This document shows positions 2,325 to 63,871 of a stretch of DNA of 64,000 bases, piece after piece (the first letter of the stretch is position 1; each line of letters opens with the position of its first letter). Location: the NCBI GenBank assembly GCA_030430025.1, contig JAUIGR010000010.1:1797-65796 (forward strand). Direction: 5' to 3'. The DNA is from Gammaproteobacteria bacterium (GTDB taxonomy: Bacteria; Pseudomonadota; Gammaproteobacteria; Xanthomonadales; Marinicellaceae). The translations under genes and the position numbers were made by a program. A model generated the notes under the pieces. That model saw only the letters and a list, made by a program, of their open reading frames with translations. It had not been told where the DNA came from and ran no database searches.

Positions 2325-2341
2325 GTCATATTATTATCGTA

Positions 2342-2680: not shown

Positions 2681-2696
2681 GTTAATACTCGATTTA

Positions 2697-2724
2697 GCCG
2701 AACATCAGATTTTCCAGGACTGAC
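2697..2724 (+). repeat. 28-bp degenerate relic of the MITE (both ends fused)
   Basis: TA|GCCGAACATCAGATTTTCCAGGACTGAC resembles left end GTCGAAC plus right end TTTTCAGGA(C/T)TGAC. Confidence 0.45.
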
Positions 2725-2791
2725 CGCAATAAATCAACCAAATCCGCCATTATTTTTCCTCAATAGCATAAAATAACTGCTATTAAAGCTG

Positions 2792-3811: not shown

Positions 3812-4488
3812 AAATATTGATTGCAGATGATGAACCACTGGCAAGGATGCGATTAGCTAAAATGTTGAATCATCTGGGCTATGATCAAGTCATTGAGGCT
3901 CAAAATGGTAATGAAGCGGTGTCACTGGCTAATAAGCATTATCCTGATGTGATTTTTCTGGACATTCAAATGCCTCATTGTAGTGGTTTGGAAGCAGCAG
4001 AATTAATTAAAGCCAATATGCCTACTGTTCCCATTGTTTTTTGTACTGCCCATGATGAGTTTGCCTTAAAGGCCTTTGATTTATCTGCTAATGATTATTT
4101 GCTGAAGCCTGTTGCTTTGGATCGTTTAGGTCAATCTTTAAAAAAAGTCGGTGTGCTCACAGAGAGCCAAAAAATAACAGTCAAACGAGGTCAAAATACT
4201 TATGCCATTCCAGTGGATGAAATGATTTGTTTTATGGCTGAAGATAAATATGTGGAAGTTCATTTGTCAAACAAAAGATATTTATTGGACACAACATTAA
4301 CAGAATTGGAAAAGACATATCCTCAACTTTTGCGTCTACATCGGAACTGTTTGGTTCATCGTTCTTATCTGTGTGGTATACATGTTGATGATCAACACAA
4401 ATCCCATGCTATATTAAAAAAAATAGATTTACAGCCTGCTATTAGCAGGCGACAATTGGCGGTAGTTAAAAAGGAATTGGACTCATGA
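3808..4488 (+). CDS. algR: LytTR-family response regulator
   Basis: Receiver domain (DDEPLAR, FLDIQMP, DYLLKP) plus LytTR domain (LLRLHRNCLV); ATGA overlap with the kinase. Confidence 0.88.
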   Translation: MKILIADDEPLARMRLAKMLNHLGYDQVIEAQNGNEAVSLANKHYPDVIFLDIQMPHCSGLEAAELIKANMPTVPIVFCTAHDEFALKAFDLSANDYLLKPVALDRLGQSLKKVGVLTESQKITVKRGQNTYAIPVDEMICFMAEDKYVEVHLSNKRYLLDTTLTELEKTYPQLLRLHRNCLVHRSYLCGIHVDDQHKSHAILKKIDLQPAISRRQLAVVKKELDS

Positions 4489-8584: not shown

Positions 8585-8627
8585 ATAAATCAGTTAAGAT
8601 GATCAGCTGTTAAAGCAATCAACCACC

Positions 8628-9890: not shown

Positions 9891-9935
9891 GCAGATTTCA
9901 TTCTTATTTGGCTTCTAACAAGCTTGGTATGGTTT

Positions 9936-11300: not shown

Positions 11301-11479
11301 CAGAAAAATAAAAGTCAGTTTAGCTCGAATATTTAATATGTAAACATAATTTCAAATAAATGAGAAGACTCCGTTGATAACTAAAGACCAGTGATTTGTT
11401 AAAAAAACATTGTTTTTTTTGACCTTTTCCCGACAAAAATTTCGATGGTTGTGATAATTAGTAGAAAAAACATCGACTC

Positions 11480-12785
11480 ATGAACAAATACATATTCGCT
11501 TTATCTATATTTTTCTCTCATACAGTAACAGCGATAACCTTTGAAGGATCAGGTTTTGGTGAGATTCCAGATGGTCCTGGCGCTTGTGGTAATTTAGGAG
11601 ACCCATTGGCTATTAGTTTTGATGTCACAGATGTCAGTGAAGTCAATAGATTAGGGTTAGGTATAGATATCGAACACGACTGGATGGGTGATTTGATTGT
11701 CGAATTGGAAGCACCTGACCTTACTCGCCATACTGTTTGGTCAAACAGGTGCACTAGAGGGAGAGTGCGGTGGAGATAATAGTGATCTCAATGGATATTA
11801 TTATTTTACCGATGAGGCCTCCGAATACTTATTGAATCACTGGTGGATCGTGGCTGCCAATTTGGACCATGATGAAACATTACCAACAGCTTCCTATCGA
11901 ACCACTTCGATGGGAGGAGAAGTTGATGCAGGATTTCAGACTTCAATGAATGAGGCCTTCAGTAATGTGACAGAGCCTAATGGCACCTGGACACTGTATG
12001 TTTATGATAATTGGAAGGTTGTAAGTGGCTATGTCAGTGATGCCTCCTTAACCTTTAACCCTGTTGTTGGTCAAATCAACGATGGCGAGGCTACCTTCGT
12101 AATAGGATACAATGACGGTTATGGAAGCAGCCTGATAATTGATATAGAGTACTTATCCTATATGGGTTGGTCTTATCGACTCGATATTGACACCCAAGAA
12201 TATCTTTTTCCGAAAGCAGATTATGCTATTTATGATGAGGATACTGTGACCATTACCTGGTTAGATGTCGATGACAAAGGTTTCAGAGCCGATTTGACTC
12301 ATGTGATTGATCAAACGGGCCTTGAAGCTGATCAGGCGATTTTAACCAGCACCATGAAAATCACTAATTTAAATGCTGCTGATATCGATATCAGTTTGTT
12401 TAGTTTAGCTGACTTTGATGTTAATGGAATTAATGATGATATGGGTCAATTGGTTAATGATAATATCAGTCACATCAGGCAAACAGATGGTCCTTATCAG
12501 GTAGAGTTTCGAGCAGGCGGTAATGAAAACTATCAAATAGGAAATTACGAATCCGTTGGTTTTCCACTGGTCGGTATTGATGGTGACATTGATGATTTAC
12601 CCAATGGTGAAAATGGTTATGGACCTGATAATATAGCAACAGCTTTTCAATGGTTCAGTGGTCCTTTATCTGCTGATTCCAGTTATCAGGTACAAACCAC
12701 GGTCGCTGTCGGTGGTATCACCGCACCGGAACCAGCTGACCCCGTTAATTCATCAGATCTGATATTTGCTGACGGCTTTGATTAA
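11480..12785 (+). pseudogene. Secreted proprotein-convertase P-domain protein with DLIFADGFD tail, split by a frameshift
   Basis: ORFs 11480-11779 and 11697-12785 join at ~11735 (ELEAPDLTRHT / FGQTGALEG; +1 frame change). P-domain motifs IEHDWMGDLIVEL and NGTWTLYVYDNW lie on either side of the break. Confidence 0.75.
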
Positions 12786-23511: not shown

Positions 23512-24309
23512 TCAGCGGACTTTTGGGATAGTGACAGTAGGTAAGCGTTTGAACCAATGTTCGAAAGCCAGTGCGGCCTGATGATATAGCATGCCTAGCC
23601 CGTCATGGCATTGAGAGCAATGTTGGGTTGCAACAGTCAGGAAAGGTTGAGCAGTTTGGCCATAACTTAAGTCATAAGCAATTGAATGGTCAGTAAACCA
23701 TTGGGGTTTTAGCTCAGGGCTTTGGTTTTGGTAACCCAAGGTGGTACCATGGATGATCAAATCGTATGCTGGTTGATTTTGGTTATCAGTTGCTGCCAGA
23801 GAACAGCGGTCAAAACGTTGAGAGAGGGCTGCGGCTTTGGCTTTGGTACGATTATCGATGTCAATTGATGCTACTTGTGCATCGAGAAGTGCAGGGATAA
23901 TGCCCTGAACGGCACCACCGGCACCGAGAATCAGTACTCGTTTATTGGTCAATGTGATATTTTTGGAAGTCAGATCATTGACTAAACCGTCACCGTCAGT
24001 GTTATCACCCCATAGTTGTTGGCCCTTTTTGAATAAGGTGTTGACTGCGTCTGCTTTTTGGGCACGTGCTGTCAAGTTATCCAGCATTGGTATGATATTG
24101 GTTTTATGAGGTACTGTGATATTAGCGCCAAGACCACCTTTGGCAAAAAAATCTCTGACTTGATCAATTAACTGAGTGGCATCGACTTCAACTAACCTGT
24201 AATTAATCAATAATCCGAATTGATTTGCAAAAACTTGATGAATGTGCGGCGATTGGCTATGTTTGACAGGTTGGCCAAAAAGTGCCAATTGGTTTATTCG
24301 TTCAGCCAT
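23512..24309 (-). CDS. aroE: Shikimate dehydrogenase
   Basis: HSQSP, NITVPHK, AVNT, NTDG, GAGGA, GLGMLYHQA. Confidence 0.95.
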   Translation of the reverse strand: MAERINQLALFGQPVKHSQSPHIHQVFANQFGLLINYRLVEVDATQLIDQVRDFFAKGGLGANITVPHKTNIIPMLDNLTARAQKADAVNTLFKKGQQLWGDNTDGDGLVNDLTSKNITLTNKRVLILGAGGAVQGIIPALLDAQVASIDIDNRTKAKAAALSQRFDRCSLAATDNQNQPAYDLIIHGTTLGYQNQSPELKPQWFTDHSIAYDLSYGQTAQPFLTVATQHCSQCHDGLGMLYHQAALAFEHWFKRLPTVTIPKVR

Positions 24310-25283
24310 TCAATAACACGGTCTGCATAATAGGTCATTATCACATCACATCCGGCTCTTTTAAAACAAAGTAATGTTTCCATAACTGCTGGTCGTTCAG
24401 CTAAGAACCCTTGGTTAATAGCACCTTGCAACATGGTGTATTCGCCGGAGACGTGATAGGCCCAGATAGGAACATTGAATTGTGACTTAGCCATGGCGAT
24501 GACGTCTAGATAAGGTAGCCCAGGTTTAACCATCACCATATCAGCACCTTCATTGATGTCCATAGCAATTTCATCAATGGCCTCCAAGGCATTAGTGGGA
24601 TTCATTTGATAACTGTTTTTAGCGCTTTTACCCAGATTAGCAGCAGAGCCAACGGCTTCCCTGAATGGCCCGTAAAAACTTGATGCATATTTGGCTGAAT
24701 AAGACAATATCAGGGTATGGTGGTGTTTTTGCTGCTCCAACATAGCACGAATCTCACCAACACGGCCATCCATCATATCTGAAGGAGCCACCACATCAGC
24801 ACCCGCTTTGGCATGGGATCGTGCTTGCATTACCAGTGCTTTGATGGTGACATCATTGAGAATCTCACCTTGTTCGTTGATCATGCCATCTTGACCATGA
24901 GATGTATATGGATCAAGTGCTACATCGGTAATGACCAGTAGTTCTGGCAAACTAGATTTGATGAATTTGACTGTTTTCTGTATCAGTCCTTCAGGGTTCC
25001 AGGCTTCGGCAGCATCGTCTGTTTTGTAACGTTCTTCAATTACAGGAAATAACGCCACTGCATTGAGCCCTTTTTCATGTAAAGGGATCAATTTGTCCAA
25101 CAGTATATCGGCACTCATGCGTTGAACACCTGGCATGGATTCGATCGTTTCTGTGCGATTAAAACCGTCCAGTACGAAGACTGGCCAAATCAGGTCATTG
25201 ACCGTTAATTGATTCTCACAACTCAAGTTGCGTATGGCTTGGGAAGCACGCAAACGTCTTTTTCTGGTGTATGGAAATTGCAT
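24294..25283 (-). CDS. hemB: Porphobilinogen synthase
   Basis: DVALDPYTSHGQDG, PSDMMDGR, YSAKYASSFYGPFR, MVKPG, YHVSGEY. Confidence 0.97.
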   Translation of the reverse strand: MQFPYTRKRRLRASQAIRNLSCENQLTVNDLIWPVFVLDGFNRTETIESMPGVQRMSADILLDKLIPLHEKGLNAVALFPVIEERYKTDDAAEAWNPEGLIQKTVKFIKSSLPELLVITDVALDPYTSHGQDGMINEQGEILNDVTIKALVMQARSHAKAGADVVAPSDMMDGRVGEIRAMLEQQKHHHTLILSYSAKYASSFYGPFREAVGSAANLGKSAKNSYQMNPTNALEAIDEIAMDINEGADMVMVKPGLPYLDVIAMAKSQFNVPIWAYHVSGEYTMLQGAINQGFLAERPAVMETLLCFKRAGCDVIMTYYADRVIEWLNE

Positions 25284-42256: not shown

Positions 42257-42961
42257 TCATAAGTGATATACATCAAATCGACAGGATTTACCCGTGATTT
42301 GAAAAGTGAGCTTATGACTGTTAAGCACCGGTGATTTGGCTGGTCGTTTAATGACCACCCGGTACTTCGCACATTGTAAGGCGTGATTGAGGAGTGAGCC
42401 TACGTCGTTCATGGTTTTCTTGTGTAAACGATGAAACAACTGCATGTCCTTTTTTACCAACGCATCCTTATTGCGAGGCGGGAACATGGGATCGAGGTAG
42501 ATGATATCATACTTTTGCCATTTTATCATATTAAAAGCGTCATCAAAGTACAATGTAAAGGGTCTTGGTCTGTTATTTAATTGATTTTGATAATGATTTA
42601 AGGCATTGTGTAATAAAGTAAAAACGACAGGATTTACTTCACAGGCGACCACTTTAAAACCAGCACAACTGAGTAAAAAAGCATCTTTTCCAAAACCACA
42701 GGTGGCGTCTAACAGATTAAAGTGTACTTGTCCTTTAATTCGACACGCCTTTACCAAGAGTTCCTTGTTGATGTGTTGTGAACTACGATGGATTAACTTT
42801 TTGTTTAAAAAATTAGCGGTCGCAGTGATTTTAGGATTATTCAGATCGACTAAAAATAAAACCCCATCTTTAAAAGATAGGGTTAAATCTGATGCTATTA
42901 AGTGTTCTTGAACTAATCTAGCATCTATCCCTAGGGTTTTTAGATGCGAATCAAGATTCAT
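42257..42961 (-). CDS. rsmJ: 16S rRNA m2G1516 methyltransferase
   Basis: [26 protein letters not shown]. Confidence 0.9.
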
Positions 42962-44250
42962 TTCCTTTTTTTGATGTCCACATAATCCCTGGTTTTTGCG
43001 CCACGATAAACTTGTCGTGGTCTGCCAATACGAGTGTCCGATGTTTCATGCTGCTCTAACCATTGTGATGTCCAACCAACTGTCCTGGCTATGGCAAACA
43101 TGACTGTGAACATTTGTGTTGGCATGCCCAGCGCTTTGTAAATGATGCCTGAATAAAAATCAACATTTGGGTATAAGTTTCGCGAGACAAAATACTCATC
43201 TTTTAGTGCAATTTCTTCTAATTTCATGGCCAGTTCAAGTTGTGGATCATGAACTCCGAGACTATTTAATACTTCATGGCAGGCTTGACGTATGATGGTG
43301 GCACGAGGGTCAAAATTTTTGTAAACACGATGACCAAAGCCCATTAACCTGAAAGGATCATTTTTATCCTTCGCTTTGGCAATGTACTTATCGATTTGTG
43401 ATACATCACCAATTTTATCTAACATGTTCAGCACTGCTTCATTCGCACCGCCATGTGCAGGACCCCACAAAGACGCAATGCCCGCGGAAATACAAGCAAA
43501 AGGGTTGGCACCTGTTGAGCCGACTAATCGTACCGTGGATGTTGATGCGTTTTGTTCGTGATCAGCATGAAGTATGAATAATAAGTCCAGTGCTTTTGCT
43601 GCAATTGGGTTAATTTCATAAGGTTCAGCAGGAACCCCAAACATCATATGTAATAAACGTTCTGTGAAATTGAGACTGTTTTTAGGATACATGATCGGTT
43701 GACCAATGTGGTTTTTGTATACAAAGGCAGCCACAGTGGGCATCTTGGCAATCAGTCGTATCGCTGCTAACCGACGATCACTAGGATTGCTCATATCCAT
43801 GTGGTTATGATAGAAAGCGGCTAATGACCCGATGGCACTCATCATCATTGCCATTGGATGTGCGTCATACTGAAACCCTTTCATAAAAGAGTGTATCTTT
43901 TCATGGACCATGGTATGACGTGTGATTTCACTTTTAAATGCCGTGTATTGGCTTTGGCTTGGGAGTTCACCATTGATCAGTAAGTAAGTAACCTCCATAA
44001 AAGTACTATCCTTAGCCAGTTGTTCAATGGGATAGCCACGATACAATAAAACGCCTTTGGCTCCATCAATGAAGGTGATGTCACTGGTGCACGAGCCTGT
44101 GGCAGCGAACCCCGAGTCATAAGTAAAGTAACCCGTTTGTTTATGAAGCGTTTTGATATCAAAGGTAGGTGGTCCCATTTTGGACCGTATAACTGGTAAT
44201 TCAGCGGATTGTCCTTCGGGTGTGATTAATTTAACAACTTCTTGACTCAT
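42958..44250 (-). CDS. gltA: Type II citrate synthase
   Basis: [43 protein letters not shown]. Confidence 0.97.
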
Positions 44251-49648: not shown

Positions 49649-51487
49649 ATGAAAGCAATAACGATGGCTGCTGGTATGATGCTGGCCGCCCATTCAATAG
49701 CGGCAGATAATGCGCCGCACCTAAAGTTTAATCAACTATTAAAACCAGAAACATTATATCAGCAAAGAGACTCTAAGGCTCTTAAGGGAGTTGTTATAGC
49801 TACAGTAGGTGATGATAATGCATGTGACTATCGATTAGGAACAACCAGAATTAATGATGCCATCAATGGAGGGTACATTCACATTAGGGTGGCAGCAGGA
49901 ACATATACAGAAAATATCAGCATTGTTGACAAAAATATGACCATAGAAGGTGGGTATGCTAATTGTACGGATGCTGCTAATGATGTTGTAGGTGGCGGTA
50001 GTACAATCATAGATGGATCAGGAGATACAGCAACCTCTGTGGTGGGGATCTCGGGAAACTCTGATGTTTGGAATATCACCCTGAGAAGGTTGACTATCCA
50101 AAATGGAGGTACTATCTCATTGCTTGTTGGAGGAGGCATTAATGTTATAAATTCAGATGCCAATATTTTGTTTGATAATCTTATTATTTTAGAAAATACA
50201 GCCAACTTCGGCGGCGGGATTGGTATTATTTTCGGTGCTCCTTCAATTAATATTGTGGACACCAATATTTGGAGCAATACAGGTAATTCGGGAGGAGGAA
50301 TCTCTTGTAATTCTGTTGGTGCAGGGATTAATTTTTACGATACAGGAAATGCGGGTAAGGGTTCAATCTTTGGTAACCAAGTTGTTTTGAGAGATGGTGG
50401 AGGTGTTGAGCTGCTTGCAGGCTGTTCGATGATATTATTTTCAGGTCAAGATCCAGATAATCTCATAGATTTTAGAGGTATTATCAATAATACAAGTGTT
50501 AGGCACGGCGGTGGAGTTTATGCTGCTAATGGGTCTCAGTTTACTGCAATTGGTTTCTTTTTCTTGGCAGGAAATAATGATGCTCCTGCTACTGTCAGGG
50601 CTAATACGGCTGACAGTGACAACAATGACGAAGGTAATGGTGGTGGCATTTATCTAACGGGTGCGAATACTTCAGCAGGTTTGTATAACATCAGACTGTC
50701 TGATAACAGCGCATATAATGGTGGTGGTATAGCTGTTGAAGAGGGTGCAACTTTATTGACAGAAGCCATTAAGTTTTCTTCATCGTGCTGGGCTCCAGGA
50801 AAATGTAACCAGATTCACGGAAATCAGGCTGATTCTTTTGGAGGAGCTATATATTCAGATCAATCGGCAGATCTCGAAACCAATACCAGTATCTTTTCCT
50901 CTCATATTTATGGCAATACAGCTGCTTCAGCAGGGTCAGCATCATATGTCAGAGGAGAAGATAATGAATTTTTAATAGAAGGCTCAGTGATCTATGAAAA
51001 CACTGGTGGGTCGGTTGTATTGTATAACTTTACAAATTCGATTGCTCGCTATCAGTTCAATACCATTGCCGATAACCAGGCTGGTTTAAGTATAGTGAGG
51101 AATTTTCAAGGGACCAGTCAATTAATGAGTTCCATTGTCCACCAGTTAGATGCCACAGATGTTTATTCAACTGTATCGCCCGTTGATGATGCGTTTGATT
51201 GTCTCATAACACATGCAGAAACTGGATTTACACCCATCTTTAGCACTATTATTGATGACCCAGAGTTCGTTGATCGGGCAAATGATGACTATCATATCAA
51301 CTCATTCAATTCGCCAGCGGTTGATTTTTGTGATGGTTTTACCGTTCCAGAGCGTGATACTGATATTGATAATGAGCAGCGTGGTTGGGATGATTACACT
51401 ACGGTTAATAACATCGGACCCTACGATATAGGTGCCGATGAGACTTATGGTAATGATATCATATTTGAAGATGGTTTAGAAATGTAA
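49649..51487 (+). CDS. Secreted beta-helix (PMP/GGAI-repeat) protein with choice-of-anchor-Q-like end and DIIFEDGLE tail
   Basis: Signal peptide; repeated N-x-A-x-x-GGGI; DYHINSFNSPAVD ... DIGADE; terminal DIIFEDGLEM. Confidence 0.85.
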   Translation: MKAITMAAGMMLAAHSIAADNAPHLKFNQLLKPETLYQQRDSKALKGVVIATVGDDNACDYRLGTTRINDAINGGYIHIRVAAGTYTENISIVDKNMTIEGGYANCTDAANDVVGGGSTIIDGSGDTATSVVGISGNSDVWNITLRRLTIQNGGTISLLVGGGINVINSDANILFDNLIILENTANFGGGIGIIFGAPSINIVDTNIWSNTGNSGGGISCNSVGAGINFYDTGNAGKGSIFGNQVVLRDGGGVELLAGCSMILFSGQDPDNLIDFRGIINNTSVRHGGGVYAANGSQFTAIGFFFLAGNNDAPATVRANTADSDNNDEGNGGGIYLTGANTSAGLYNIRLSDNSAYNGGGIAVEEGATLLTEAIKFSSSCWAPGKCNQIHGNQADSFGGAIYSDQSADLETNTSIFSSHIYGNTAASAGSASYVRGEDNEFLIEGSVIYENTGGSVVLYNFTNSIARYQFNTIADNQAGLSIVRNFQGTSQLMSSIVHQLDATDVYSTVSPVDDAFDCLITHAETGFTPIFSTIIDDPEFVDRANDDYHINSFNSPAVDFCDGFTVPERDTDIDNEQRGWDDYTTVNNIGPYDIGADETYGNDIIFEDGLEM

Positions 51488-51508
51488 GAATTTGAGGGTA
51501 TAAACTCC

Positions 51509-51539
51509 AAAGCCCCTTTGAAAAACGAAGGGGCTTTTT
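51509..51539. terminator. Bidirectional intrinsic terminator
   Basis: AAAGCCCCTT-9nt-AAGGGGCTTTTT between convergent genes. Confidence 0.8.
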
Positions 51540-51617
51540 ATCTCATTTTCATGTGTCGGTTGTTTAGTTTTCAAGAGTTGTGATATTAACAATTGAATTG
51601 TGCTAATTCCTAGATGT

Positions 51618-52106
51618 TCACCAGTAGGGTTCACGAATAAAGTGACAAGTGTAGCCGTTAGGGATGCGCTCAAGGTAATCCTGATGTTCGGGTTCTGCTT
51701 CCCAAAAATCACCAGCTGGGCTCACTTCTGTGACTACTTTGTTAGGCCAAAAACCGGAACCATCGACTTCATCAATGGCATTTTGTGCTATTTGTTTTTG
51801 CTCATTTGAGGTATAGAATATAGCAGAACGGTAGGAGGTACCTACGTCATTGCCTTGACGATTTTGTGTGGTTGGGTCGTGTATTTGAAAAAAGAACCTG
51901 AGCATTTCTTTGAATGAAGTTTGTTGTGGGTCGATGATGATTTCGAGTGTTTCGGCATGAGTTCCATGGTTCTTATAAGTGGCATTTTTGATATTGCCAC
52001 CACAGTACCCGACACGGGTTGATATGACTCCCGGTTGTTTTCGGAACAAGTCCTGCATCCCCCAAAAGCAACCTCCAGCTAACAAAACACGTTCTTGGTT
52101 GTTCAT
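51618..52106 (-). CDS. msrA: Peptide methionine sulfoxide reductase A
   Basis: [30 protein letters not shown]. Confidence 0.96.
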
Positions 52107-52606
52107 CTGATCAATCTCATGGTAAAAACATGATGATTGGGGCTCTGTACCATTTTGTCAAGCTGTTTCAATAGCAGATACAGGTAAAAACAAATGCGGT
52201 TCAAATGAGGGAGATAAGAATGTGCGTTGTTATGTCAACGATACTGCCGAGGCCATATGAAATCAATCTATGGTTACGGTATACACAACAGACAGGCGTT
52301 GAGGTGGACTGATACATCGGTAGAGCGTTAGCGCATGTTCTGTGTATGATTCAAGCGATGGTTAGTCGATGGTTGCTGGGTAATGAGGTTGCCATGGATG
52401 TTAATTTATGACAGTGTCAACGCGATACTTTAATGACTATTGTAGAGGCCTCTACTTGTTCAAATTGATATTCTTGTTGATTCAATAAACAAGATCGATA
52501 CCATCACTTTAATTCAGCTACTATTCATGATTGAAAAACATAATGAGTGACTGCTTTTAGAATGGATCTAAAAACTTAACCCATTTAATAATGAAAAGGT
52601 AGAAAT

Positions 52607-53908
52607 ATGAAAAAAATACTTTGTTTACTTTCCGTTTTTTATTTAGGCATTTCATGGGGGTCTCAGTATTACAAGACAGAGACCACAACCATGGATTATC
52701 AAGATATCGATGACATGGTTGATCGTGTGATGCTTTTTGATGGCAATGAGGGTTACTATGATGACCTATCAGCTGAAATAGAGTTACCCTTCCCGTTTCT
52801 TTTTTATGGGCAAGAATATAACAGCCTGCGCGTTAGTACCAATGGTTATTTGGTTTTTCCTGATGATCAACCTGGTGATTACATGGGCAACGATCCCTTA
52901 CCTAGTACAGACGAACCCGATGGTATCATTGCTGTCTTTTGGGATGATTTAATAGTTCAAGATGAAGGGACAACAGATCAAATATCATATGTTGTTCAAG
53001 GTGAAGCACCTAATCGAGTCTTGATTGTTGATTATCGTTCAGTGAGTTTTTTTAGCCCTAGCGGTTACATTTATTCACAAGTTAAATTATTTGAGGGAGG
53101 TCATGTCATAGAATTCCATTATGATAATAGTTATCCCGATATAGTAGCTAATGCATCAGCCACCATTGGTCTTGAACATCCTTGTGGTTGTCTTGCCGAT
53201 CCAGGGCCTAATGCAGATAATACAAATAGCACTACGCCTAATGAAGCTTATCGCTTTAGTCCGGTTTATTATACCCGCAGTGAAATTGATATGGATTACA
53301 TAACCACGATGAACATGCCTGGAAGGGAGATACTTTTTAATGGCGGTGTGGGTTCCTATGATGATGATGAAGCTGAGATCAATCTACCATTCACATTTGA
53401 GTTTTATGGAACAGCTTATGACAGCCTGCGGGTAAGTACCAATGGTTATTTGGTCTTCCCTGAGGGTGAAATAGGCACTGACTTTGGCAATGATTCATTA
53501 CCTAATACAGGAGGCCCCAATGGCATTATTGCAGTCTTTTGGGATGATTTAAAAGTTAGGCAAAATGATGGTTATATCGATCAAATCTCATATGTTGTTC
53601 AAGGACAGGCGCCCAACCGAGTGTTGATTATTGATTATCAGTCGATAGGATCTTTGAGTAATGGCGATGATAATATATGGGCTCAGGTTAAGCTATATGA
53701 AAGCAGTTATATTATAGAACTTCATTATCAAGAAGATTTGAGTGATACAGATTCTGGTGGAGTCGACGCCACTATGGGTCTGGAGCATCCTTGTGGTTGT
53801 CTTGCTGAACCAGGTCCTAATTACGACAATGACAATGACGTAATACCGATGGTTGCCTATCGCTACACACCTAACGATTTAATTTTTATGAATGGCTTCA
53901 ATGACTGA
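52607..53908 (+). CDS. Secreted protein with two tandem nidogen-like domains and DLIFMNGFND tail
   Basis: Signal peptide; twice LPF-x-F-x-FYG-x-x-Y-x-SLRVSTNGYL ... IAVFWDDL ... GLEHPCGCLA. Confidence 0.85.
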   Translation: MKKILCLLSVFYLGISWGSQYYKTETTTMDYQDIDDMVDRVMLFDGNEGYYDDLSAEIELPFPFLFYGQEYNSLRVSTNGYLVFPDDQPGDYMGNDPLPSTDEPDGIIAVFWDDLIVQDEGTTDQISYVVQGEAPNRVLIVDYRSVSFFSPSGYIYSQVKLFEGGHVIEFHYDNSYPDIVANASATIGLEHPCGCLADPGPNADNTNSTTPNEAYRFSPVYYTRSEIDMDYITTMNMPGREILFNGGVGSYDDDEAEINLPFTFEFYGTAYDSLRVSTNGYLVFPEGEIGTDFGNDSLPNTGGPNGIIAVFWDDLKVRQNDGYIDQISYVVQGQAPNRVLIIDYQSIGSLSNGDDNIWAQVKLYESSYIIELHYQEDLSDTDSGGVDATMGLEHPCGCLAEPGPNYDNDNDVIPMVAYRYTPNDLIFMNGFND

Positions 53909-53932
53909 TAGCCAGCATTAAATTGCATCTAT

Positions 53933-53969
53933 TTGTCATGGCTCTGAATACTTTTCAGAGCCATGACAA
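53933..53969. repeat. Perfect 16-bp inverted repeat (terminator-like)
   Basis: TTGTCATGGCTCTGAA-TACTT-TTCAGAGCCATGACAA, 24 nt after the stop. Confidence 0.8.
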
Positions 53970-54026
53970 TCAGCTTCATACTTTCACAGTGGATAACCTG
54001 ATTACCGGCGTCATTGTCTATACTTA

Positions 54027-54080
54027 GTCAATCCTGAAAAAGTCCTTCCTGGCCTTTTTCAGATTCAGTTTAAAAACACT
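54027..54080 (-). mobile_element. MITE end fragment
   Basis: TA|GTCAATCCTGAAAAAGTCCTTCCTGGCCTTTTTCAG matches the right end of 1498-1803. Confidence 0.75.
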
Positions 54081-54200
54081 ATCGAATCCAAAATAAGAAT
54101 CAGTTAAAAAAGCAATCAGCTTAATAGCTGAAAATATCAAATTAACAACATTTCCACCAAGGCTTTGTTAGAATGCCTCCTTTTTATAAAGATCAAGTAC

Positions 54201-55103
54201 ATGTGGTTTAAGAATGCGCGACTATTTCAACTAAATGAAGACATTGGTTTGGATCCTCAGGCCTTGAATGAGGCACTACAAAAAGAAGCTCTAACAGCCT
54301 GTAAACCACAGGAATTGTTGTCTAAAGGCTGGGTATCACCTTTTGGTCGGACAAGTGATGTATATGTTTGGCAAAGTGGTGAAGCTTTGCTGTTTTGTTT
54401 GGGTATGGAGGAAAAAATCCTCCCTGCGGCAGCGATCAACCATCAGTTGAACCAAAGAATTGAAAACATTCAATCTGAAACAGGTCAAAAACCGGGACGT
54501 AAACAACAAACCGATATGAAACAACAGTTGGTGTTAGAGATGGTTCCTCAAGCTTTCGTCAAACCAAAGCAGGTGTTTGCCTATTTGGATCTGAACTTGA
54601 AGATGCTGATAGTAGATACCTCCAGCCAAAATGCTGCTGAAGAATTGGTTAATCACATGCGACACACCTTAGGATCATTTAAAGTGTCGGCCTTTGGTCC
54701 TTCTTCTTCAGTTGCACAGGTAATGACACATTGGGTCACTCATGCTAAGGCTGAAGGTGGATTTGATATCGATTCGGAAATTGTTTTGGAAACCATGGAT
54801 GAGAGCAAAGGCTTGGTACGGGGTCGTAATATTGAGCACCTCGATGACCAAATGCAACAGCACATCGATAATGGTTATCTGGTAACTTCCCTGGGTCTGG
54901 TTTTTAATGACCGCATTGATCTCATTTTAGGTCATGATTTAAGTATCAAGAAAATCAAATTCACTGACATCGTTTTGGATCAGATGGAAGAAAATGGTTT
55001 AGAAGATGAGTTTCAAATATTAGACACAAAATTTACATTATTTAGCCTCGAAATCAGAGCCATGTTAAAGGCCTTGTTTGGTGTTTTTAAACAGTCTGAA
55101 TGA
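54201..55103 (+). CDS. rdgC: Recombination-associated protein RdgC
   Basis: MWFKNARLF, SKGWVSPFG, EEKILPAAAIN, LRHTLGS-like segment. Confidence 0.93.
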   Translation: MWFKNARLFQLNEDIGLDPQALNEALQKEALTACKPQELLSKGWVSPFGRTSDVYVWQSGEALLFCLGMEEKILPAAAINHQLNQRIENIQSETGQKPGRKQQTDMKQQLVLEMVPQAFVKPKQVFAYLDLNLKMLIVDTSSQNAAEELVNHMRHTLGSFKVSAFGPSSSVAQVMTHWVTHAKAEGGFDIDSEIVLETMDESKGLVRGRNIEHLDDQMQQHIDNGYLVTSLGLVFNDRIDLILGHDLSIKKIKFTDIVLDQMEENGLEDEFQILDTKFTLFSLEIRAMLKALFGVFKQSE

Positions 55104-55104
55104 C

Positions 55105-55740
55105 ATGGACTTGGTATATTGGGAAAAGATTTTTGAGACACATGTTAATGGCATTGATGCTGTTGATGCGGGTCATGATCTTAATCACATCAAGCGGGTA
55201 GTTAAAACTGCCAAACAATTAGCAGCAGCCGAACAGGCCGAGATTGCGGTAGTGCTGCCTGCCGCCTGGTTACATGACTGCGTTCAGGTAGCCAAAGACT
55301 CGCCTTTGAGAACACAAGCTTCAAGAATGGCGGCTCAGGAGGCTGAACAGTTATTGATTCGTTGGCAATATCCGGTACAACATATTCCAGCCATTGTTCA
55401 TGCCATAGAAGCCCACAGTTTTTCAGCTCATATCACCTGTGAAACATTGGAGGCAAAAGTGGTTCAGGATGCAGATAGGATGGATGCATTAGGTGCGATA
55501 GGAACGGTACGAACGTTGTTGGTTGGCCAATCTTTTGGTAACCCTTTATTGGCTGAAAATGATCCCTTTTGTGTTCAACGAGATGCCAATGATCAAACAT
55601 CTATTATCGATCATTTTTATACCAAGTTATTGAAACTTAAAGATTCGTTCCACACTGATTCGGCTAAGGTGGAAGCACAAAAACGACATGATTTCATGAT
55701 CCTTTTTTTGAAACAATTGTCTGATGAAGTTTTGGGCTGA
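55105..55740 (+). CDS. HD-domain phosphohydrolase (YedJ-like)
   Basis: GHDLNHIKRV, WLHDC, VQDADRMDALGAIG, HFYTKLL. Confidence 0.9.
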   Translation: MDLVYWEKIFETHVNGIDAVDAGHDLNHIKRVVKTAKQLAAAEQAEIAVVLPAAWLHDCVQVAKDSPLRTQASRMAAQEAEQLLIRWQYPVQHIPAIVHAIEAHSFSAHITCETLEAKVVQDADRMDALGAIGTVRTLLVGQSFGNPLLAENDPFCVQRDANDQTSIIDHFYTKLLKLKDSFHTDSAKVEAQKRHDFMILFLKQLSDEVLG

Positions 55741-55744
55741 TAAA

Positions 55745-57742
55745 ATGACAACCATGATTGTGCGATTACTGATTCTAGTCACCTTAAGTCTTCTGTTGAG
55801 TAATGGCGGTTTGGCCGATAACAACGACCTGTTAAAAAAGAGGAAATTGTTTGGACAATTATATTCGGCAGCACTGAAGGGGCAGCATGCTTTTGTCAAC
55901 CAAAAACGCCATCAACTCCATGGTTACGTGCTCGAACATTATTTGGATTATGCAACTATCCACCATAACCTGAATAAAAATCCAGGAACCTCAACTGATC
56001 AGATTATTGCTGACTTTAAAGTTAAACATCCGAATAGCCCATTGAATCGTCGTCTGGATACTGCTCGTTTGAATGCGTTGGGCATAAGGGCGATGTGGCC
56101 AGAATATCTCAAATGGCATAATGGTTTGGATTCAGGTAAAAAACAATGCTGGTACTTACAAGCGAGATTGGCTATGAACCAGACACAGAATTTGCCGGCA
56201 TTAGTAGAGGCGATGTGGATGAGTGGCTTGTCTGCACCAGATGCTTGTGATCCTGTGTTCAAGTGGTGGCAGCAACAAGGGTATATGAAAGAAAATTTAA
56301 TTCTCAAACGGATCAAAAAAGCATTTGAACACAATAATTTCAGTTTAATTACATACCTGAAGAGTAAATTAAAAAAAGAGCCGTCTTGGGTTGGTCGTGC
56401 CATTGAATTGGCGAAAAGGCCAGAACATGGTTTGCGCCAATCGATTACATGGACATCTGATGCAGAAACTGTTTGGTTAATTGAAAAAACAGCCATGCGT
56501 ATGGCATCTGAGCAGCCGATGACATTACAGGCCATGTGGTCGGACATTAACCATACACATGTTTTAACTGCAACTCAGAAGCAGTTAATAGAAAGAAAAA
56601 TGGCGTTATTTGCAGCCACAGATTATAACCATTGGTCAATTGGTGCGATGGAGCAACTGCCTGAAGAAATGAAGGATGACCAAATTAAGGCATGGATCGT
56701 GCGTTATTATCTTTTTAATCAAAGTTGGCCTGACGTTTTGAAAGCTTTACAAAACATGTCACCCAACCAGCTGGCGAGAGACAACTGGCAGTATTGGCTG
56801 GCTCGCGCTCACGTCAAAACAGGTCAGCCTACAAAAGCCAAAGCGATATTTACAAAGTTAGCCACTAAAACTAACTACTATAGTTTCTTATCAGCTGATC
56901 ACTTGCGTCTCCCTTATGCGCTGTGTCAAAAAAATCCTGTCAATCCTAACCCTCAGTTTCAAGCTTCTGAGGGCATAGAGCGAGCCATCGAATTACATCA
57001 TTTAGGCATGTTGAGTATGGCCAGAAGTGAATGGAATGTAGCGTACAAAGGTATAAGTCGACCGGACAAACAAGCGCTCAGTGAACGGGTAATGAAAGAA
57101 GGTTGGTATGCTAAGGCCATTGCCATCATGGCAGACATGGGTCAATGGGATAACTACCATTTGCGTTATCCCATTGCCCATAAAAAAACAATCGCTCAAT
57201 ACACTAAAGGCAGTTCAATATTGCCTCAATGGGTAATGGCCATCATTAAGCAAGAAAGTGCTTGGACTAAGGATGCAGTGTCACATGCCAATGCCCATGG
57301 TTTGATGCAATTATTACCAAGCACCGCTCAAAGGTTGAGCGACCAGTTAGGTATTAATTACAAAGACCAACATCAATTGCATCAGCCTGATTTTAATATC
57401 AAACTGGGTATCAGCTATCAAAAAAAGCTCTTTGAACAGTTCAATCACCCGATTTTGGCCGCTGCTGCCTATAATGCTGGGGAAGGTAAGTCCATTGATT
57501 GGTCAGTTGATTTCCCAACCTCTCCAGACATCTGGTTGGAAACCATCCCTTATAAGGAAACCAGAAAGTACGTGACCAAAATTTTATCAAATGTCACTAT
57601 CTATGATTGGTTGATCAATGGACAGCCCAAACGCATCAGCCATTGGATGCCGACGATGCCTGTTAACAAGCAGACCAGTCAACCATGGCCTGCCGCCAGT
57701 GTGGTCAAAAACTCAGCATCTTTAGCTGTATGCAGTCCATAA
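55745..57742 (+). CDS. slt: Soluble lytic murein transglycosylase
   Basis: Signal peptide; IIKQESAW, AHGLMQL, AAYNAGEG, IPYKETRKYV. Confidence 0.92.
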   Translation: MTTMIVRLLILVTLSLLLSNGGLADNNDLLKKRKLFGQLYSAALKGQHAFVNQKRHQLHGYVLEHYLDYATIHHNLNKNPGTSTDQIIADFKVKHPNSPLNRRLDTARLNALGIRAMWPEYLKWHNGLDSGKKQCWYLQARLAMNQTQNLPALVEAMWMSGLSAPDACDPVFKWWQQQGYMKENLILKRIKKAFEHNNFSLITYLKSKLKKEPSWVGRAIELAKRPEHGLRQSITWTSDAETVWLIEKTAMRMASEQPMTLQAMWSDINHTHVLTATQKQLIERKMALFAATDYNHWSIGAMEQLPEEMKDDQIKAWIVRYYLFNQSWPDVLKALQNMSPNQLARDNWQYWLARAHVKTGQPTKAKAIFTKLATKTNYYSFLSADHLRLPYALCQKNPVNPNPQFQASEGIERAIELHHLGMLSMARSEWNVAYKGISRPDKQALSERVMKEGWYAKAIAIMADMGQWDNYHLRYPIAHKKTIAQYTKGSSILPQWVMAIIKQESAWTKDAVSHANAHGLMQLLPSTAQRLSDQLGINYKDQHQLHQPDFNIKLGISYQKKLFEQFNHPILAAAAYNAGEGKSIDWSVDFPTSPDIWLETIPYKETRKYVTKILSNVTIYDWLINGQPKRISHWMPTMPVNKQTSQPWPAASVVKNSASLAVCSP

Positions 57743-58986
57743 TTAACCACTCTTATTTGGTCGGTGGTGCGGTCAGAGACCGACTCCTTGGTTTAACTAT
57801 AAAAGACCATGATTATGTGGTGGTGGGTAAAACACCTGATGACTTACTGGCTGCTGGTTTTCTTTCTGTTGGTAAGGATTTCCCGGTATTTCTGCACCCG
57901 GAAACTCAAGATGAATATGCCTTGGCACGTACGGAAAGAAAAAATGGCATGGGCTATCATGGCTTTCGGTTTAATACCGACAGCTCGGTGACACTTGAAG
58001 ATGATTTGTTGCGTCGTGATTTGACCATCAATGCCATGGCTATGGGTCCAGACGGCCAGATTATAGACCCCTATGGTGGTCAGCGAGACCTCGAAAACAA
58101 AGTCCTCCGGCATGTTTCCCCTGCCTTTGCAGAGGATCCATTGCGGGTATTGCGTGTTGCTAGGTTCATGGCTCGTTTTGCCCACTTGGGATTCCAAGTA
58201 CATTCCGAAACGTTGGCACTGATGAAGCAGCTTGTTGATTCAGATGAGCTTGAAACTCTGCCAGCTGAACGCATCTGGCAGGAAATCAAAAACAGCCTCA
58301 ATACACCGAGACCTTCGGCTTTTTTTATGACTTTAAGGGACTGTGCTGCTTTAGAGGCGTTACTACCGGAAATTGACTGCTTGTTTGGAGTGCCCCAGAC
58401 AAAACAATGGCACCCAGAAGTAGATACCGGACTTCATGTGATGCTTGCCATCGATCAAGCCAGAGATTTAGATAACGTAGTGGCATTTGCGGTGATGTTA
58501 CACGATTTGGGCAAAGGCATCACACCACAAGATGTGCTGCCCAGTCACAGAGGACATGAGGCAGCCGGTGTGCCGTTAGTGCAAGCAGTTTGTGAGCGTT
58601 TAAAAGTGCCTAATCCATATAAAGACTTGGCCATTAAGGTCTGTCGCTGGCACCTACAAGCCCATACCATCATGCAGCTCAAAGCTTCAACTGTAGACAA
58701 ACTCTTTAAGTCGTTGGATGCTTATCGTCAGCCACAAATTCTGGAGTATTTTGTGCAAGCCTGTCGAGCGGATGCCTTGGGCCGTTGGGGGGATGAATTC
58801 AAAGTTTATCCGCAGGCAGATGTCATCAGATCGCTATTTACAGCAGCGCAAAGTATTGATCAGCAAGCCATTGTTTCCGATTATCAAAAAAAAGGTCATG
58901 AAGGTCAGATGTTGGGCCAAGCCATCCGTCAAGCACGAATTGCCGCCATAAGAATGGCAAAAAGCAATGGTTTGAAAGTTAATTGA
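57730..58986 (+). CDS. cca: Multifunctional CCA-adding enzyme
   Basis: YLVGGAVRD, DHDYVV, RRDLTINA, EDPLRVLR; HD domain (LHDLGKG). Confidence 0.96.
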   Translation: MQSIINHSYLVGGAVRDRLLGLTIKDHDYVVVGKTPDDLLAAGFLSVGKDFPVFLHPETQDEYALARTERKNGMGYHGFRFNTDSSVTLEDDLLRRDLTINAMAMGPDGQIIDPYGGQRDLENKVLRHVSPAFAEDPLRVLRVARFMARFAHLGFQVHSETLALMKQLVDSDELETLPAERIWQEIKNSLNTPRPSAFFMTLRDCAALEALLPEIDCLFGVPQTKQWHPEVDTGLHVMLAIDQARDLDNVVAFAVMLHDLGKGITPQDVLPSHRGHEAAGVPLVQAVCERLKVPNPYKDLAIKVCRWHLQAHTIMQLKASTVDKLFKSLDAYRQPQILEYFVQACRADALGRWGDEFKVYPQADVIRSLFTAAQSIDQQAIVSDYQKKGHEGQMLGQAIRQARIAAIRMAKSNGLKVN

Positions 58987-59132
58987 ATGTCTCTACTATT
59001 AGAGAAAAACACATTGTTTATCTGGAGGGCACTTCTATTAATGAGTTATTTCTTCTGCAAGTTGACAAGGTGTCATATGCAAGGCGCACTTTGCACTGAA
59101 TTCAAATACAAAAATGGCTTTCAAGCGACAAA

Positions 59133-59158
59133 AAAAGCCCGCGACTATACGGGCTTTT
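59133..59158. terminator. Bidirectional intrinsic terminator
   Basis: AAAAGCCCG-CGACTATA-CGGGCTTTT between convergent genes. Confidence 0.75.
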
Positions 59159-59218
59159 CCTTACTTACCTGTTTATCTACAGGTTTAGCGGTGATCTTTA
59201 CATAAAGTTAAGACAATG

Positions 59219-60583
59219 TTATAAGACCTCAGGCTCATCAAAGCCATCCATAAAGATCAAATCAGAACCAAAAAATGGAAAATATGAGGGTACATAGCGG
59301 TATCCTTTCTGAGGTACAACGTCATTGTCATTATTGTAGTTAGGTCCTGGCTCGGCAATACAGCCACAAGGGTGTTCCAGACCAATGGTGGCGTTTGTAT
59401 AACCATCATCTGTATCACTGAGGAAGCTACTATAATGAAATTCAATCACATTAGACCCTTCGTACAATTTGGCTTGAGCCCAGAGATGGTCATCAGTAGG
59501 ACCATTTCCGTCGGCACGAATTTGTACTGATCTATAATCAACAATTAAAACGCGATTAGGCGCCTCACCTTGAACAACATATGATATTTGATCAGTGCCT
59601 CCTGCATTTTGAGCGACCTGCAGATCATCCCAAAAGACAGCAATGATGCCATCGGGGTGTTGAGCACTGGGTAATGAGTTGTTGTCATACTCGTTGCTTG
59701 TTTCACCATCAGGAAAGACCAGATATCCATTGGTGCTGACACGTAGGTTTTGATACGCCTTGCCATAGAACTTAAATGAGAAAGGTAATTCTATTTCAGC
59801 TGAGGTATCATCATAAGTATTCTCACTGCCATCAAAAAGCATCATCCGACCAGCCACGCCATCCATATCTTGGTAGTCTAAGTTAATTTCACTGCGGTCA
59901 TAATATTGCGGCGGAGTGTATCGATACGCTACATCAGGCACAGTATCGTTGTCATTATTGTAGTTAGGCCCTGGCTCGGCAATACAGCCACAAGGATGCT
60001 CCAGACCAATGGTGGCGTTTGTATAACCATCATTTGTATCACTGAGGAAGCTATTATAATGAAATTCAATCACATGAGACCCTTCGTACAATTTGGCTTG
60101 AGCCCAGATAAGATCATTAGTAGGATTTCCCTCGGCACGAATTTCTACTGATCGATAATCAACGATCAAAACACGATTAGGCGCCTCACCTTGAACAACA
60201 TATGAAATCTGATCTACAATTCCACCATTTGGACCTACCTCGAGATCATCCCAAAAAACAGCAATGATGCCATTGGGGCCTTGTGGATTAGGTAATGAGT
60301 CATTGTCATACTCAGTGGCTGATTGATTGAGGAAGACCAGGTAACCATTGGTACTGACACGCAGGTTGTTATATTCTTGCCCATAAAAAAGAAATGGGAA
60401 GGGTAACTCTATTTCAGCTTCCTCATCATCATAAGTATCTATACTACCATCAAAAAGCATCGCCCGACCAGCCACGCCAGCCAAGTCTTGATAATCCATG
60501 GGGATCACTTCACGTTGATAGTCATCACCACCAAAAGCAAGGGCAGTATATAAGAGGGCTATAACACAATATATTTTTTTCAT
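59219..60583 (-). CDS. Paralogue of 52607-53908: two nidogen-like domains, DLIFMDGFD tail
   Basis: Same domain motifs twice including GLEHPCGCIAEPGPN; signal peptide. Confidence 0.87.
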   Translation of the reverse strand: MKKIYCVIALLYTALAFGGDDYQREVIPMDYQDLAGVAGRAMLFDGSIDTYDDEEAEIELPFPFLFYGQEYNNLRVSTNGYLVFLNQSATEYDNDSLPNPQGPNGIIAVFWDDLEVGPNGGIVDQISYVVQGEAPNRVLIVDYRSVEIRAEGNPTNDLIWAQAKLYEGSHVIEFHYNSFLSDTNDGYTNATIGLEHPCGCIAEPGPNYNNDNDTVPDVAYRYTPPQYYDRSEINLDYQDMDGVAGRMMLFDGSENTYDDTSAEIELPFSFKFYGKAYQNLRVSTNGYLVFPDGETSNEYDNNSLPSAQHPDGIIAVFWDDLQVAQNAGGTDQISYVVQGEAPNRVLIVDYRSVQIRADGNGPTDDHLWAQAKLYEGSNVIEFHYSSFLSDTDDGYTNATIGLEHPCGCIAEPGPNYNNDNDVVPQKGYRYVPSYFPFFGSDLIFMDGFDEPEVL

Positions 60584-63224: not shown

Positions 63225-63455
63225 ATGGGTCAGGTTACAATCTACTTAGAAGATGACATTGAGAGGAAGATGAAAGATGCTGCAAAGTCAGCCAGACTTT
63301 CAAAAAGTAAATGGATTGCAAGGCTTATTAAAGAACAAGTATCTAATGAGTGGCCTCAGTCTGTTATAGATATGGCAGGTTCTTGGAATGACTTCCCCAC
63401 TATAAGTGAAATTAGGGAAAACGAAGGGAATGATATTGAGCGAGAGAAACTGTGA
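63225..63455 (+). CDS. vapB: RHH/CopG-type antitoxin
   Basis: ATG 63225 with GGAG RBS; QVTIYL strand, SKSKWIARL helix; stop overlaps the toxin start. Confidence 0.82.
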   Translation: MGQVTIYLEDDIERKMKDAAKSARLSKSKWIARLIKEQVSNEWPQSVIDMAGSWNDFPTISEIRENEGNDIEREKL

Positions 63456-63871
63456 TGTTTGTGCTTGATACCAATACATTAATCTATTTTTTCAAAGGCA
63501 TGGGCAATGTTTCAAAAAACTTTCTTGAGGTACAACCCAAGAATATAGCTATTCCATCGGTAGTTCTTTATGAATTAAAGTATGGCATAGCAAAATCTAA
63601 CTCTCCTCAAAAGCGCAATAAGCAATTAATGGAATTGTGCTCTTTAGTTGAAACCCTACCGTTTGGTGATAGTGCAGCTCAAGTATCTGCATCAATCAGA
63701 GCCAGCCTCGAAAAGCAGGGTACACCTATTGGTCCTCTTGATGTCTTAATTGCAGGAACAACAATAGCTAATAAGGGCATATTAGTTACTAACAATACAA
63801 AGGAGTTTTCAAGAATACCAAATTTGAGGTTGGATAATTGGTACATTACTCCAATCCCTAGTCCAACCTAA
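63452..63871 (+). CDS. vapC: PIN-domain toxin
   Basis: LDTN, VVLYELKYG, GPLDVLIAG, VTNNTKEF. Confidence 0.93.
   Translation: MMFVLDTNTLIYFFKGMGNVSKNFLEVQPKNIAIPSVVLYELKYGIAKSNSPQKRNKQLMELCSLVETLPFGDSAAQVSASIRASLEKQGTPIGPLDVLIAGTTIANKGILVTNNTKEFSRIPNLRLDNWYITPIPSPT

Follow-up and report, generated by a model that had tools for sequence, protein, structure and literature searches.

The sorting signals LPXTG, PEP-CTERM, and GlyGly-CTERM and the C-terminal domain (CTD) of the type IX secretion system (T9SS) each led to a dedicated envelope machine, and each allows the surface proteome to be predicted from sequence. The T9SS CTD of Bacteroidota (PF18962/TIGR04183) is a folded β-sandwich of ~70–100 residues that has no transmembrane (TM) segment, is found on Sec cargo of multiple architectures, and is read after Sec export. 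GlyGly-CTERM (rhombosortase), PEP-CTERM (exosortase), MYXO-CTERM (myxosortase), and IPTL-CTERM are short, patchily distributed signals with many cargo proteins per genome; they are tripartite, the motif being followed by a hydrophobic TM helix and then by a C-terminal basic (Arg/Lys) cluster, and their substrates are membrane-held. Domains that occur with alternative C-terminal anchors are known as "choice-of-anchor" domains (10.1101/2023.03.06.531300). Here, we describe a short peptide, D-[LI]-I-F-x-[DN]-G-[FL]-[DEN], that ends four long open reading frames (ORFs), 0–5 residues before the stop codon, in a 64,000-nucleotide stretch (the window) of contig JAUIGR010000010.1 from a gammaproteobacterium of the Marinicellaceae. 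An earlier note on this DNA had singled out the tail as a candidate sorting or anchoring tag not described before, and that core claim is well supported by the comparative evidence presented below.

Gene 2 (49649..51487, + strand) encodes a signal peptide and a right-handed β-helix of ~600 residues, followed by DIGADE-TYGN and the tail, and ends in GNDIIFEDGLEM. Its tail, DIIFEDGLE (51455..51481, +), is separated from the stop by a single M, and a terminator-like hairpin lies 3' of it at 51514-51533. Gene 3 (52607..53908, +) encodes a signal peptide and two NIDO-like β domains and ends in PNDLIFMNGFND; the tail, DLIFMNGFN (53876..53902, +), begins 2 residues past the domain end YRYTP and is followed by D and the stop. 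Its paralogue, gene 4 (59219..60583, − strand; 59% identity), likewise encodes a signal peptide and two NIDO-like domains; a linker of 8 residues then leads to the tail DLIFMDGFD (59237..59263, −), after which EPEVL precedes the stop (end GSDLIFMDGFDEPEVL). The fourth ORF (11697..12785, +) is the remainder of gene 1 and comprises a P-domain-like module, a domain of ~230 residues, a Pro-rich linker, and the tail DLIFADGFD (12756..12782, +), with the stop codon directly after it (end SSDLIFADGFD).

These coordinates and ends agree with those quoted in the earlier note, as does its count of three architectures, which we identify as NIDO-like (proteins 3 and 4), β-helix (protein 2), and a P-domain-like module with the ~230-residue domain (protein 1). 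No TM-like hydrophobic stretch was found after residue 45 in any of the four, in keeping with the absence of a TM helix that it had reported. It had also counted four signal-peptide proteins; this stood for genes 2–4, which are intact, but not for gene 1, for which the signal peptide had been misplaced and the gene is frameshifted, as described further below.

A six-frame search of the whole 64 kb with the expression [DN][LIVRM]IF..[GS][FL][DENQ] matched only at the four tails, each in an ORF of at least 354 amino acids. From the window's own amino acid composition, 0.03 matches would be expected by chance per six-frame window, and ~1e-4 within the C-terminal 15 residues of ~55 proteins. Shuffling the bases 200 times gave 0.02 matches on average and never more than 1. 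Together, these expectations rule out a chance origin of the four tails. The codons of the tails differ synonymously and their flanking DNA is unrelated, so that the repeat lies in the peptide and not in the DNA, and a DNA repeat or mobile element encoding the tail is likewise ruled out. The pattern shows that the tail is under selection at the peptide level.

Relatives of the window proteins were gathered by whole-protein similarity, which leaves the set unbiased for the tail motif. All 7 close relatives of proteins 3 and 4 kept the tail, and so did nearly every full-length relative of protein 2, even at identities as low as ~25%. The consensus of 37 tails was D(29)-[LIV]-I(29)-F(37)-x-[DN](37)-G(28)-[FL](36)-[ED](32), where the numbers are counts, and 28 of the 37 had 0–1 residues after the motif. 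Within the β-helix family, conservation of the tail columns exceeded the protein average.

The AlphaFold2 model of protein 3 defined both domains well (mean predicted local distance difference test (pLDDT) 88.4, predicted template modeling score 0.81). The last strand of the model ends at YRYTP, and the tail residues 426-433 have a pLDDT below 50; the possibility that the tail is an integral strand of its own protein is therefore unsupported. In the window, 1 to about 10 residues link the last domain to the tail. Two proteins from other genomes carry the tail twice in tandem, at loci L044 (end DIIFKNGFEDFIFADGFEGDPVPPTCPAF) and L050 (end DLIFEDGFEGILDLIFKNGFDN); the L050 protein has a lipoprotein-type signal peptide (LLASC). 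The low pLDDT, the variable linkers, the differing upstream folds, and the tandem double tails show that the tail is not part of the preceding domain but a free appendage, separate from the fold before it.

We then considered the range of proteins that carry the tail. By heuristic calling, a signal-peptide test was positive for 41 of 58 tail-bearing proteins versus 84 of 364 untagged ORFs, and by eye nearly all tail-bearing proteins have a signal peptide. Only 4 of the 58 had any TM-like stretch after residue 45, and one tail-bearing protein is a lipoprotein. The 75 tail-bearing proteins span 70 Pfam families, with β-helix (10), S8 subtilases with PA domains (4), M36 peptidases, FG-GAP, P-domain, Calx-beta, Big_1, and cadherin-like families among the cargo. 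The cargo thus looks extracytoplasmic, and the data bear out the view that the tail is a separate C-terminal addition, under strong selection, to Sec-exported proteins of dozens of unrelated architectures.

The same slot is occupied by known sorting signals in homologous proteins. Relatives of the NIDO-like proteins terminate with either a T9SS CTD or an IPTL- or PEP-like anchor, and β-helix relatives of protein 2 with a T9SS CTD. Among relatives of the protein 1 domain, the C terminus can be this tail, an IPTL-, PEP-, or MYXO-like anchor, a T9SS-like end, or PVELxxFS[VI][ED]. The last is a second short, TM-less ending found in other lineages in the same slot after a protein 1-type domain (P0291, P0292, P0318, P0336, P0368, and P0401), for which we know of no assignment. 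All three families, NIDO-like, β-helix, and protein 1 domain, thus show choice-of-anchor behavior, with differing C-terminal signals among homologues. NCBIfam models matched among the 75 tail-bearing proteins include choice-of-anchor Q (15 proteins), choice-of-anchor O (1), and rhombotarget A (4), and up to 6 of the 75 match M36 models named as rhombosortase-, myxosortase-, or T9SS-dependent. The tail therefore stands, as had been anticipated, where T9SS, GlyGly-, MYXO-, PEP-, and IPTL-CTERM signals stand in homologues; it takes the place of these signals, which are borne by the homologous proteins of other lineages.

The distribution of the tail was assessed with the strict back-translated motif D-[LF]-I-F-x-D-G-F-[DE] in one genome from each of 185,579 species (596 Gb), in which ~25 chance matches are estimated; at least 118 loci were obtained. 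Among the matches listed, Marinicella contributed 28 strict instances, 26 of them within 25 residues of the stop of a long ORF. The group of Dokdonella, Rhodanobacteraceae, Lysobacterales, Wenzhouxiangella, and Pseudofulvimonas contributed 31 (26 within 25 residues of the stop), and other gammaproteobacterial metagenome-assembled genomes (MAGs) contributed 16 (15 within that distance). Overall, 67 of the 75 gammaproteobacterial instances lay within 25 residues of a long-ORF stop and 60 within 8. In several loci, adjoining genes also bear looser tails, with as many as three in a row. In Acidobacteriota, mostly Thermoanaerobaculia, the tail takes a C-terminal form of ~19 residues, DLIFxDGFExGxxxxWSxxx, which runs to the stop. 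No locus among the matches listed came from Xanthomonas, Stenotrophomonas, or Lysobacter, which are species-rich.

In Marinicella, Dokdonella/Lysobacterales, and related gammaproteobacterial MAGs, the instances listed were thus nearly all C-terminal. The earlier note had called the motif widespread in Xanthomonadales-related and acidobacterial proteomes, and among the matches listed the C-terminal tail was indeed restricted to Xanthomonadales-related gammaproteobacteria and Acidobacteriota. The tail is borne by Marinicellaceae, Wenzhouxiangellaceae, the Dokdonella group, and related gammaproteobacteria, with the ~19-residue form in Acidobacteriota. Such a patchy distribution over lineages fits a dedicated accessory factor, as in dedicated sorting systems. 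Loci L005, L006, L008, L020, L080, and L111 hold an internal motif with 60–360 more residues beyond it; the extension in L005 has a CxxCH-containing region, and that in L080 resembles read-through. The internal gammaproteobacterial instances may be lost stops or genuine domain junctions.

On this basis, we consider it somewhat better than an even chance that the tail, defined as D-[LIV]-I-F-x-[DN]-G-[FL]-[DE] with usually 0–2 residues after it, is a TM-less C-terminal sorting or anchoring tag on Sec-exported proteins that is recognized by a lineage-specific envelope receptor. After Sec export and removal of the signal peptide, the tail would be a soluble periplasmic peptide. A lineage-specific receptor would read it in the periplasm or at the outer membrane, binding it probably as an added β-strand or hairpin, and would pass the cargo across the outer membrane, hold it at the cell surface, or both. 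Having neither a TM helix nor a basic cluster, the tail could not keep its protein at the inner membrane for a sortase-like enzyme. It is short, has a hydrophobic LIF...F face with acidic flanks, and is homologous to a strand-turn region (described below), which makes β-augmentation the likeliest mode of recognition.

Several results weigh against this reading. No receptor, peptidase, translocon, or sorting enzyme could be proposed among the ~50 ORFs of the window by Pfam, and all-versus-all clustering of 2,720 ORFs from the 118 loci revealed no recurrent neighboring machinery, so that the dedicated receptor postulated by the earlier note was not found in either place. About 6 of the 75 gammaproteobacterial instances listed are internal, with further sequence after the motif, and the peptide is internal in every Chloroflexota instance listed; its sequence alone thus does not make it a C-terminal signal. 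Signal peptides and TM segments were called heuristically, and the taxonomic picture is a sample and not a census. In addition, the domain before the tail of gene 2 had been called choice-of-anchor-Q-like; protein 2 gave no match to that model (NF041518) at E ≤ 1, although the association itself holds elsewhere, in the 15 tail-bearing proteins that match it.

Besides generic families, the only recurrent neighbors in the 118 loci were pairs of an extracytoplasmic function (ECF) sigma factor and a Ser/Thr kinase. An ECF-type sigma factor (~190 residues) and a Ser/Thr kinase with tetratricopeptide repeats (~800–930 residues) adjoin tail genes in L007, L011, L025, L063, L079, L085, and L101, and such pairs are also present in L031, L032, L041, and L057. 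They may regulate the cargo or may merely be abundant in such genomes.

Compared with the described systems, the tail resembles the T9SS CTD in being C-terminal, TM-less, borne by Sec cargo of multiple architectures, and placed to be read after Sec export; moreover, the CTD occupies this slot in proteins homologous to window proteins 2–4 or to the M36 peptidases. However, the CTD is a folded domain whereas the tail has 9 residues (19 in Acidobacteriota), and the tail-bearing lineages are not known users of T9SS. We rejected identity with the T9SS CTD, as there was no Pfam or NCBIfam match and only 11 residues lie beyond YRYTP in protein 3. With the CTERM signals, the tail shares its shortness, its patchiness, its cargo families, and a large number of cargo proteins in each genome, but it is TM-less and has an acidic end. 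PEP-CTERM (TIGR02595), GlyGly-CTERM (TIGR03501), IPTL-CTERM (TIGR04174), and MYXO-CTERM were rejected on the lack of a TM stretch, the final D or E that lies 0–2 residues from the C terminus, and the lack of an NCBIfam match. In its logic, the tail is nearer to the T9SS CTD or to a docking peptide than to sortase-type signals.

The β-signal of outer membrane proteins, which is read by BamA, is also a short, β-prone C-terminal peptide with a conserved Phe that is read in the periplasm. It ends in F, Y, or W on barrels, whereas the last conserved residue of the tail is D or E, extensions of 0–15 residues are tolerated, and the cargo is of soluble type. The four window proteins terminate in D, M, D, and L, and their β-helix, NIDO-like, and P-domain-like folds are not barrels, so this identity was rejected as well. 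A type I secretion signal is ruled out by the Sec signal peptides of genes 2–4, of gene 1 (upstream of its frameshift), and of 41 of the 58 tail-bearing proteins. Donor-strand complementation in chaperone-usher and type V pili, where a short terminal β-strand completes the fold of a partner, is a pure analogy; unlike pilus subunits, the tail-bearing cargo has no pilin folds and consists of enzymes and adhesin-like proteins.

Neither the tail nor the Chloroflexota domain described below is represented by a model in Pfam (2025) or NCBIfam (release 20.0). NCBIfam gave no sorting-signal match to whole window proteins at E ≤ 1 or to isolated tails at E ≤ 10, and the placement of the tail outside the described sorting families is upheld to this extent. 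Relatives of the tail proteins are named "hypothetical" or generic β-helix. The searchable full-text literature, queried with motif strings and with Dokdonella or Marinicella combined with sorting terms, held no description of the tail, and a preprint on myxosortase does not mention it. As far as the searchable literature goes, the tail would be a variant, not described before, of the C-terminal sorting tags of prokaryotes, distinct in its 9-residue length and in lacking a TM segment.

The same peptide has a different setting in Chloroflexota. Among the matches listed, it was internal in 20 of 20 instances, opening a domain of ~210 residues after a Pro/Thr-rich linker. The sequence of this domain runs DLIFADGFESGNLSAWS...RYRARFYFDPNS...DNDTRRID...YFDAFESRR..IGP. 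It is often C-terminal and sometimes present in 2–3 tandem copies (loci including L003, L010, L019, L036, L047, L053, L062, L091, and L099; relatives P0146-P0265). A search of a very large protein database returned at least 862 unnamed relatives, and its best 120 matches contained only Chloroflexi-like unnamed proteins. Pfam gave weak hints of Polysacc_lyase and matched the first 43 residues weakly to the start of CBM_4_9; NCBIfam and Protein Data Bank (PDB) sequence searches with the domain returned nothing. AlphaFold2 predicted the core (residues 42-200) confidently as a β-sandwich, and a Foldseek search with the core found polysaccharide lyases of families PL7/18/20/36 (alginate, glucuronan), the Hc-N domain of botulinum neurotoxin, pentraxin, and the LNS domain of neurexin (E ~1e-7, TM-score ~0.5). 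Residues 1-41, the most conserved part, which bears the motif, were left unplaced at a pLDDT below 50. The acidobacterial 19-residue tails align to positions 1-19 of the domain's hidden Markov model (HMM) with E values of 1e-7 to 1e-4. Beyond this, the HMM matched nothing in the window or in ~0.6 Mb of gammaproteobacterial loci, and the window tails stop 0–5 residues past the motif.

The N-terminal strand region of ConA-like/CBM4_9 jelly rolls shares with the tail the pattern hydrophobic-F-x-[DN]-G-F-E-(x)G-x3-4-W; unlike these domains, the gammaproteobacterial tail stands alone at the C terminus, with no sandwich after it. The earlier note had likened the tail to the first strand of a ConA-type sandwich. 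The homology survived, since the same peptide heads a ConA-like domain, but AlphaFold2 did not place the motif as a strand; the motif as first sandwich strand, docking by strand complementation, is a conjecture.

A specific version of the sorting-tag idea would build on this homology: the tail would be the detached N-terminal strand or hairpin of a jelly roll and would complete a strand-less ConA-like receptor in trans, tethering the cargo to an envelope-anchored protein. It is suggested by the extended form of the peptide, DLIFADGFESGNLSAWS, at the head of the Chloroflexota domain in all 20 instances listed, by the alignment of the acidobacterial tails to the first 19 positions of its HMM, by the ConA-like jelly roll that Foldseek recognized in its core, and by the weak CBM_4_9 match of its first 43 residues. 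Given the low pLDDT of residues 1-41 even in the intact domain, and a search for a jelly roll without its first strand that returned none in ~0.6 Mb of gammaproteobacterial sequence, a tiny sample, we regard this arrangement as unlikely. The broadest form of the proposal would be a new post-Sec sorting or tethering pathway of diderm bacteria, in which a 9-residue peptide (a 19-residue hairpin in Acidobacteriota) docks by strand complementation in a ConA-derived envelope receptor and takes over the role of T9SS, rhombosortase, or exosortase for dozens of proteases and adhesin-like proteins per genome. That proposal is doubtful in our estimation.

Alternatively, the tail could mark periplasmic cargo for the type II secretion system (T2SS), with a lineage-specific component such as GspC or GspD reading it. 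GlyGly-CTERM proteins of Vibrio are T2SS substrates, and the S8 and M36 proteases among the tail-bearing cargo are typical of such substrates. On a Marinicella-like contig (L120), a NIDO-like tail gene (175-3943) and a 620-residue tail gene (7157-11400, end NDLIFKDSFDAIVL) lie 4–8 kb from gspD-gspE-gspF. Wenzhouxiangella is the sister genus to Marinicella, and T2SS belongs to their shared core genome (PMC7691419). However, nearly all gammaproteobacteria have a T2SS, in contrast to the patchy occurrence of the tail; the proximity to gsp genes is a single case that may be due to chance and did not recur in the 118 loci; and the tail is also present in Acidobacteriota. These points make a T2SS signal quite improbable.

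The tail might also serve a purpose other than sorting, either as an extracellular adhesion or assembly peptide (through self-association or by binding a shared matrix or lipopolysaccharide ligand) or as a processing or quality-control mark for a periplasmic protease. A short, β-prone, acidic peptide with an LIF...F hydrophobic face would suit such functions, the tandem tails in L044 and L050 suit avidity better than a cleaved signal, and in other phyla the peptide also occurs internally. Against this, the tail systematically replaces sorting signals in curated sorting-dependent families, for which an equivalent role is the simpler explanation, and we assign a non-sorting function a low probability. 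Finally, the tail might cap the domain before it, or it might be an inert vestige of a ConA-like domain that has been lost. Many tails closely follow the β-helix terminal motif D[IVM]GA[YFVD]E, and the peptide is homologous to the start of a larger domain, which might speak for these readings. We regard both as very improbable, since unrelated folds precede the tail with varying linkers, the tail has a pLDDT below 50 on the NIDO-like protein, and it is conserved above the protein average at 25% identity with synonymous codon variation, whereas an inert remnant would decay.

Under the favored reading of a sorting or anchoring tag, the tail would be the shortest known tag of its kind and TM-less, and it would point to a new receptor or translocon. 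The proteases, β-helix proteins, and adhesin-like proteins that bear it form a large, coherent set. Their hosts, which are Acidobacteriota and the proteolytic gammaproteobacteria Marinicella, Wenzhouxiangella, and Dokdonella of marine and wastewater habitats, have no annotated signal of this kind. For Wenzhouxiangella AB-CW3, no excreted soluble protease activity was reported, and its authors inferred outer-membrane-anchored proteases (PMC7691419). A true tag would also allow better annotation of proteins that are now called hypothetical or are named as if, like their relatives, they depended on a sortase, which they cannot. The link to the head of the Chloroflexota ConA-like domain offers a testable origin for the signal.

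Gene 1 required a revised gene model. Its closest ortholog in an exhaustive HMMER search, P0267 (65% identity), has ~100 extra N-terminal residues that include a signal peptide. A tblastn search of the window with P0267 gave two high-scoring segment pairs in different frames, the missing N-terminal part lying at 11480-11740. The true start of gene 1 is the ATG at 11480, from which the sequence reads MNKYIFALSIFFSHTVTA|ITFEGSG...ELEAPDLTRH. The N-terminal part (11480..11731, +), with the signal peptide MNKYIFALSIFFSHTVTA and the start of the P-domain-like module, thus lies in a frame other than that of the rest. In all, the first ~85 residues, signal peptide included, are in one frame and the ORF 11697-12785 in another, with the switch near 11729-11731. 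The signal peptide that had been placed at the start of the 11697 ORF (LTLLAILFGQTGA) aligns instead to an internal strand of the ortholog's P-domain-like module, and the gene caller's product from the same contig, P0266, begins at an internal Met. Gene 1 is either a pseudogene or the product of an assembly error. With gene 1 frameshifted, the window has three intact signal-peptide genes with the tail, and the fourth counts only if the frameshift is an assembly error.

Concerning the cargo domains, proteins 3 and 4 each have two NIDO-like domains (PF06119). AlphaFold2 modeled these two-domain proteins (52607-53908, 59219-60583) confidently, at a pLDDT of 88, and a Foldseek search of the PDB with the model gave no match at E ≤ 0.001; the NIDO-like two-domain fold appears to be without a solved bacterial representative. 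Protein 2 matched PMP-type repeats at threshold (POMP_repeat scored 15.2 bits, the cutoff being 15). Its relatives are β-helix proteins by annotation or carry PF13229 or PF02415, the best named one being P0104 of Marinicella sp. W31 (37% identity); together with the distribution of the motif, such homologues mark the window as Marinicellaceae-like. The ~230-residue domain of protein 1 has the signature WFYR...GLPFGPxDFTxAFQW. Sequence searches of the PDB with proteins 1 and 2 returned nothing useful.

The remainder of the window, which has a GC content of 40.6%, is of housekeeping character by Pfam over its ~50 ORFs, with hemB/C/D, mpl, glnD, gltA, uvrD, msrA, rdgC, slt, cca, a TonB-dependent receptor, and an ECF sigma factor. 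Neither the citrate synthase (42958-44250) nor HemB (24294-25283) had a relative of at least 90% identity among ~15 billion proteins, and the genome is from a lineage otherwise unsampled at the species or genus level. Near the end of the window, at 63452-63871, lies a gene for a PIN-domain protein resembling VapC toxins.

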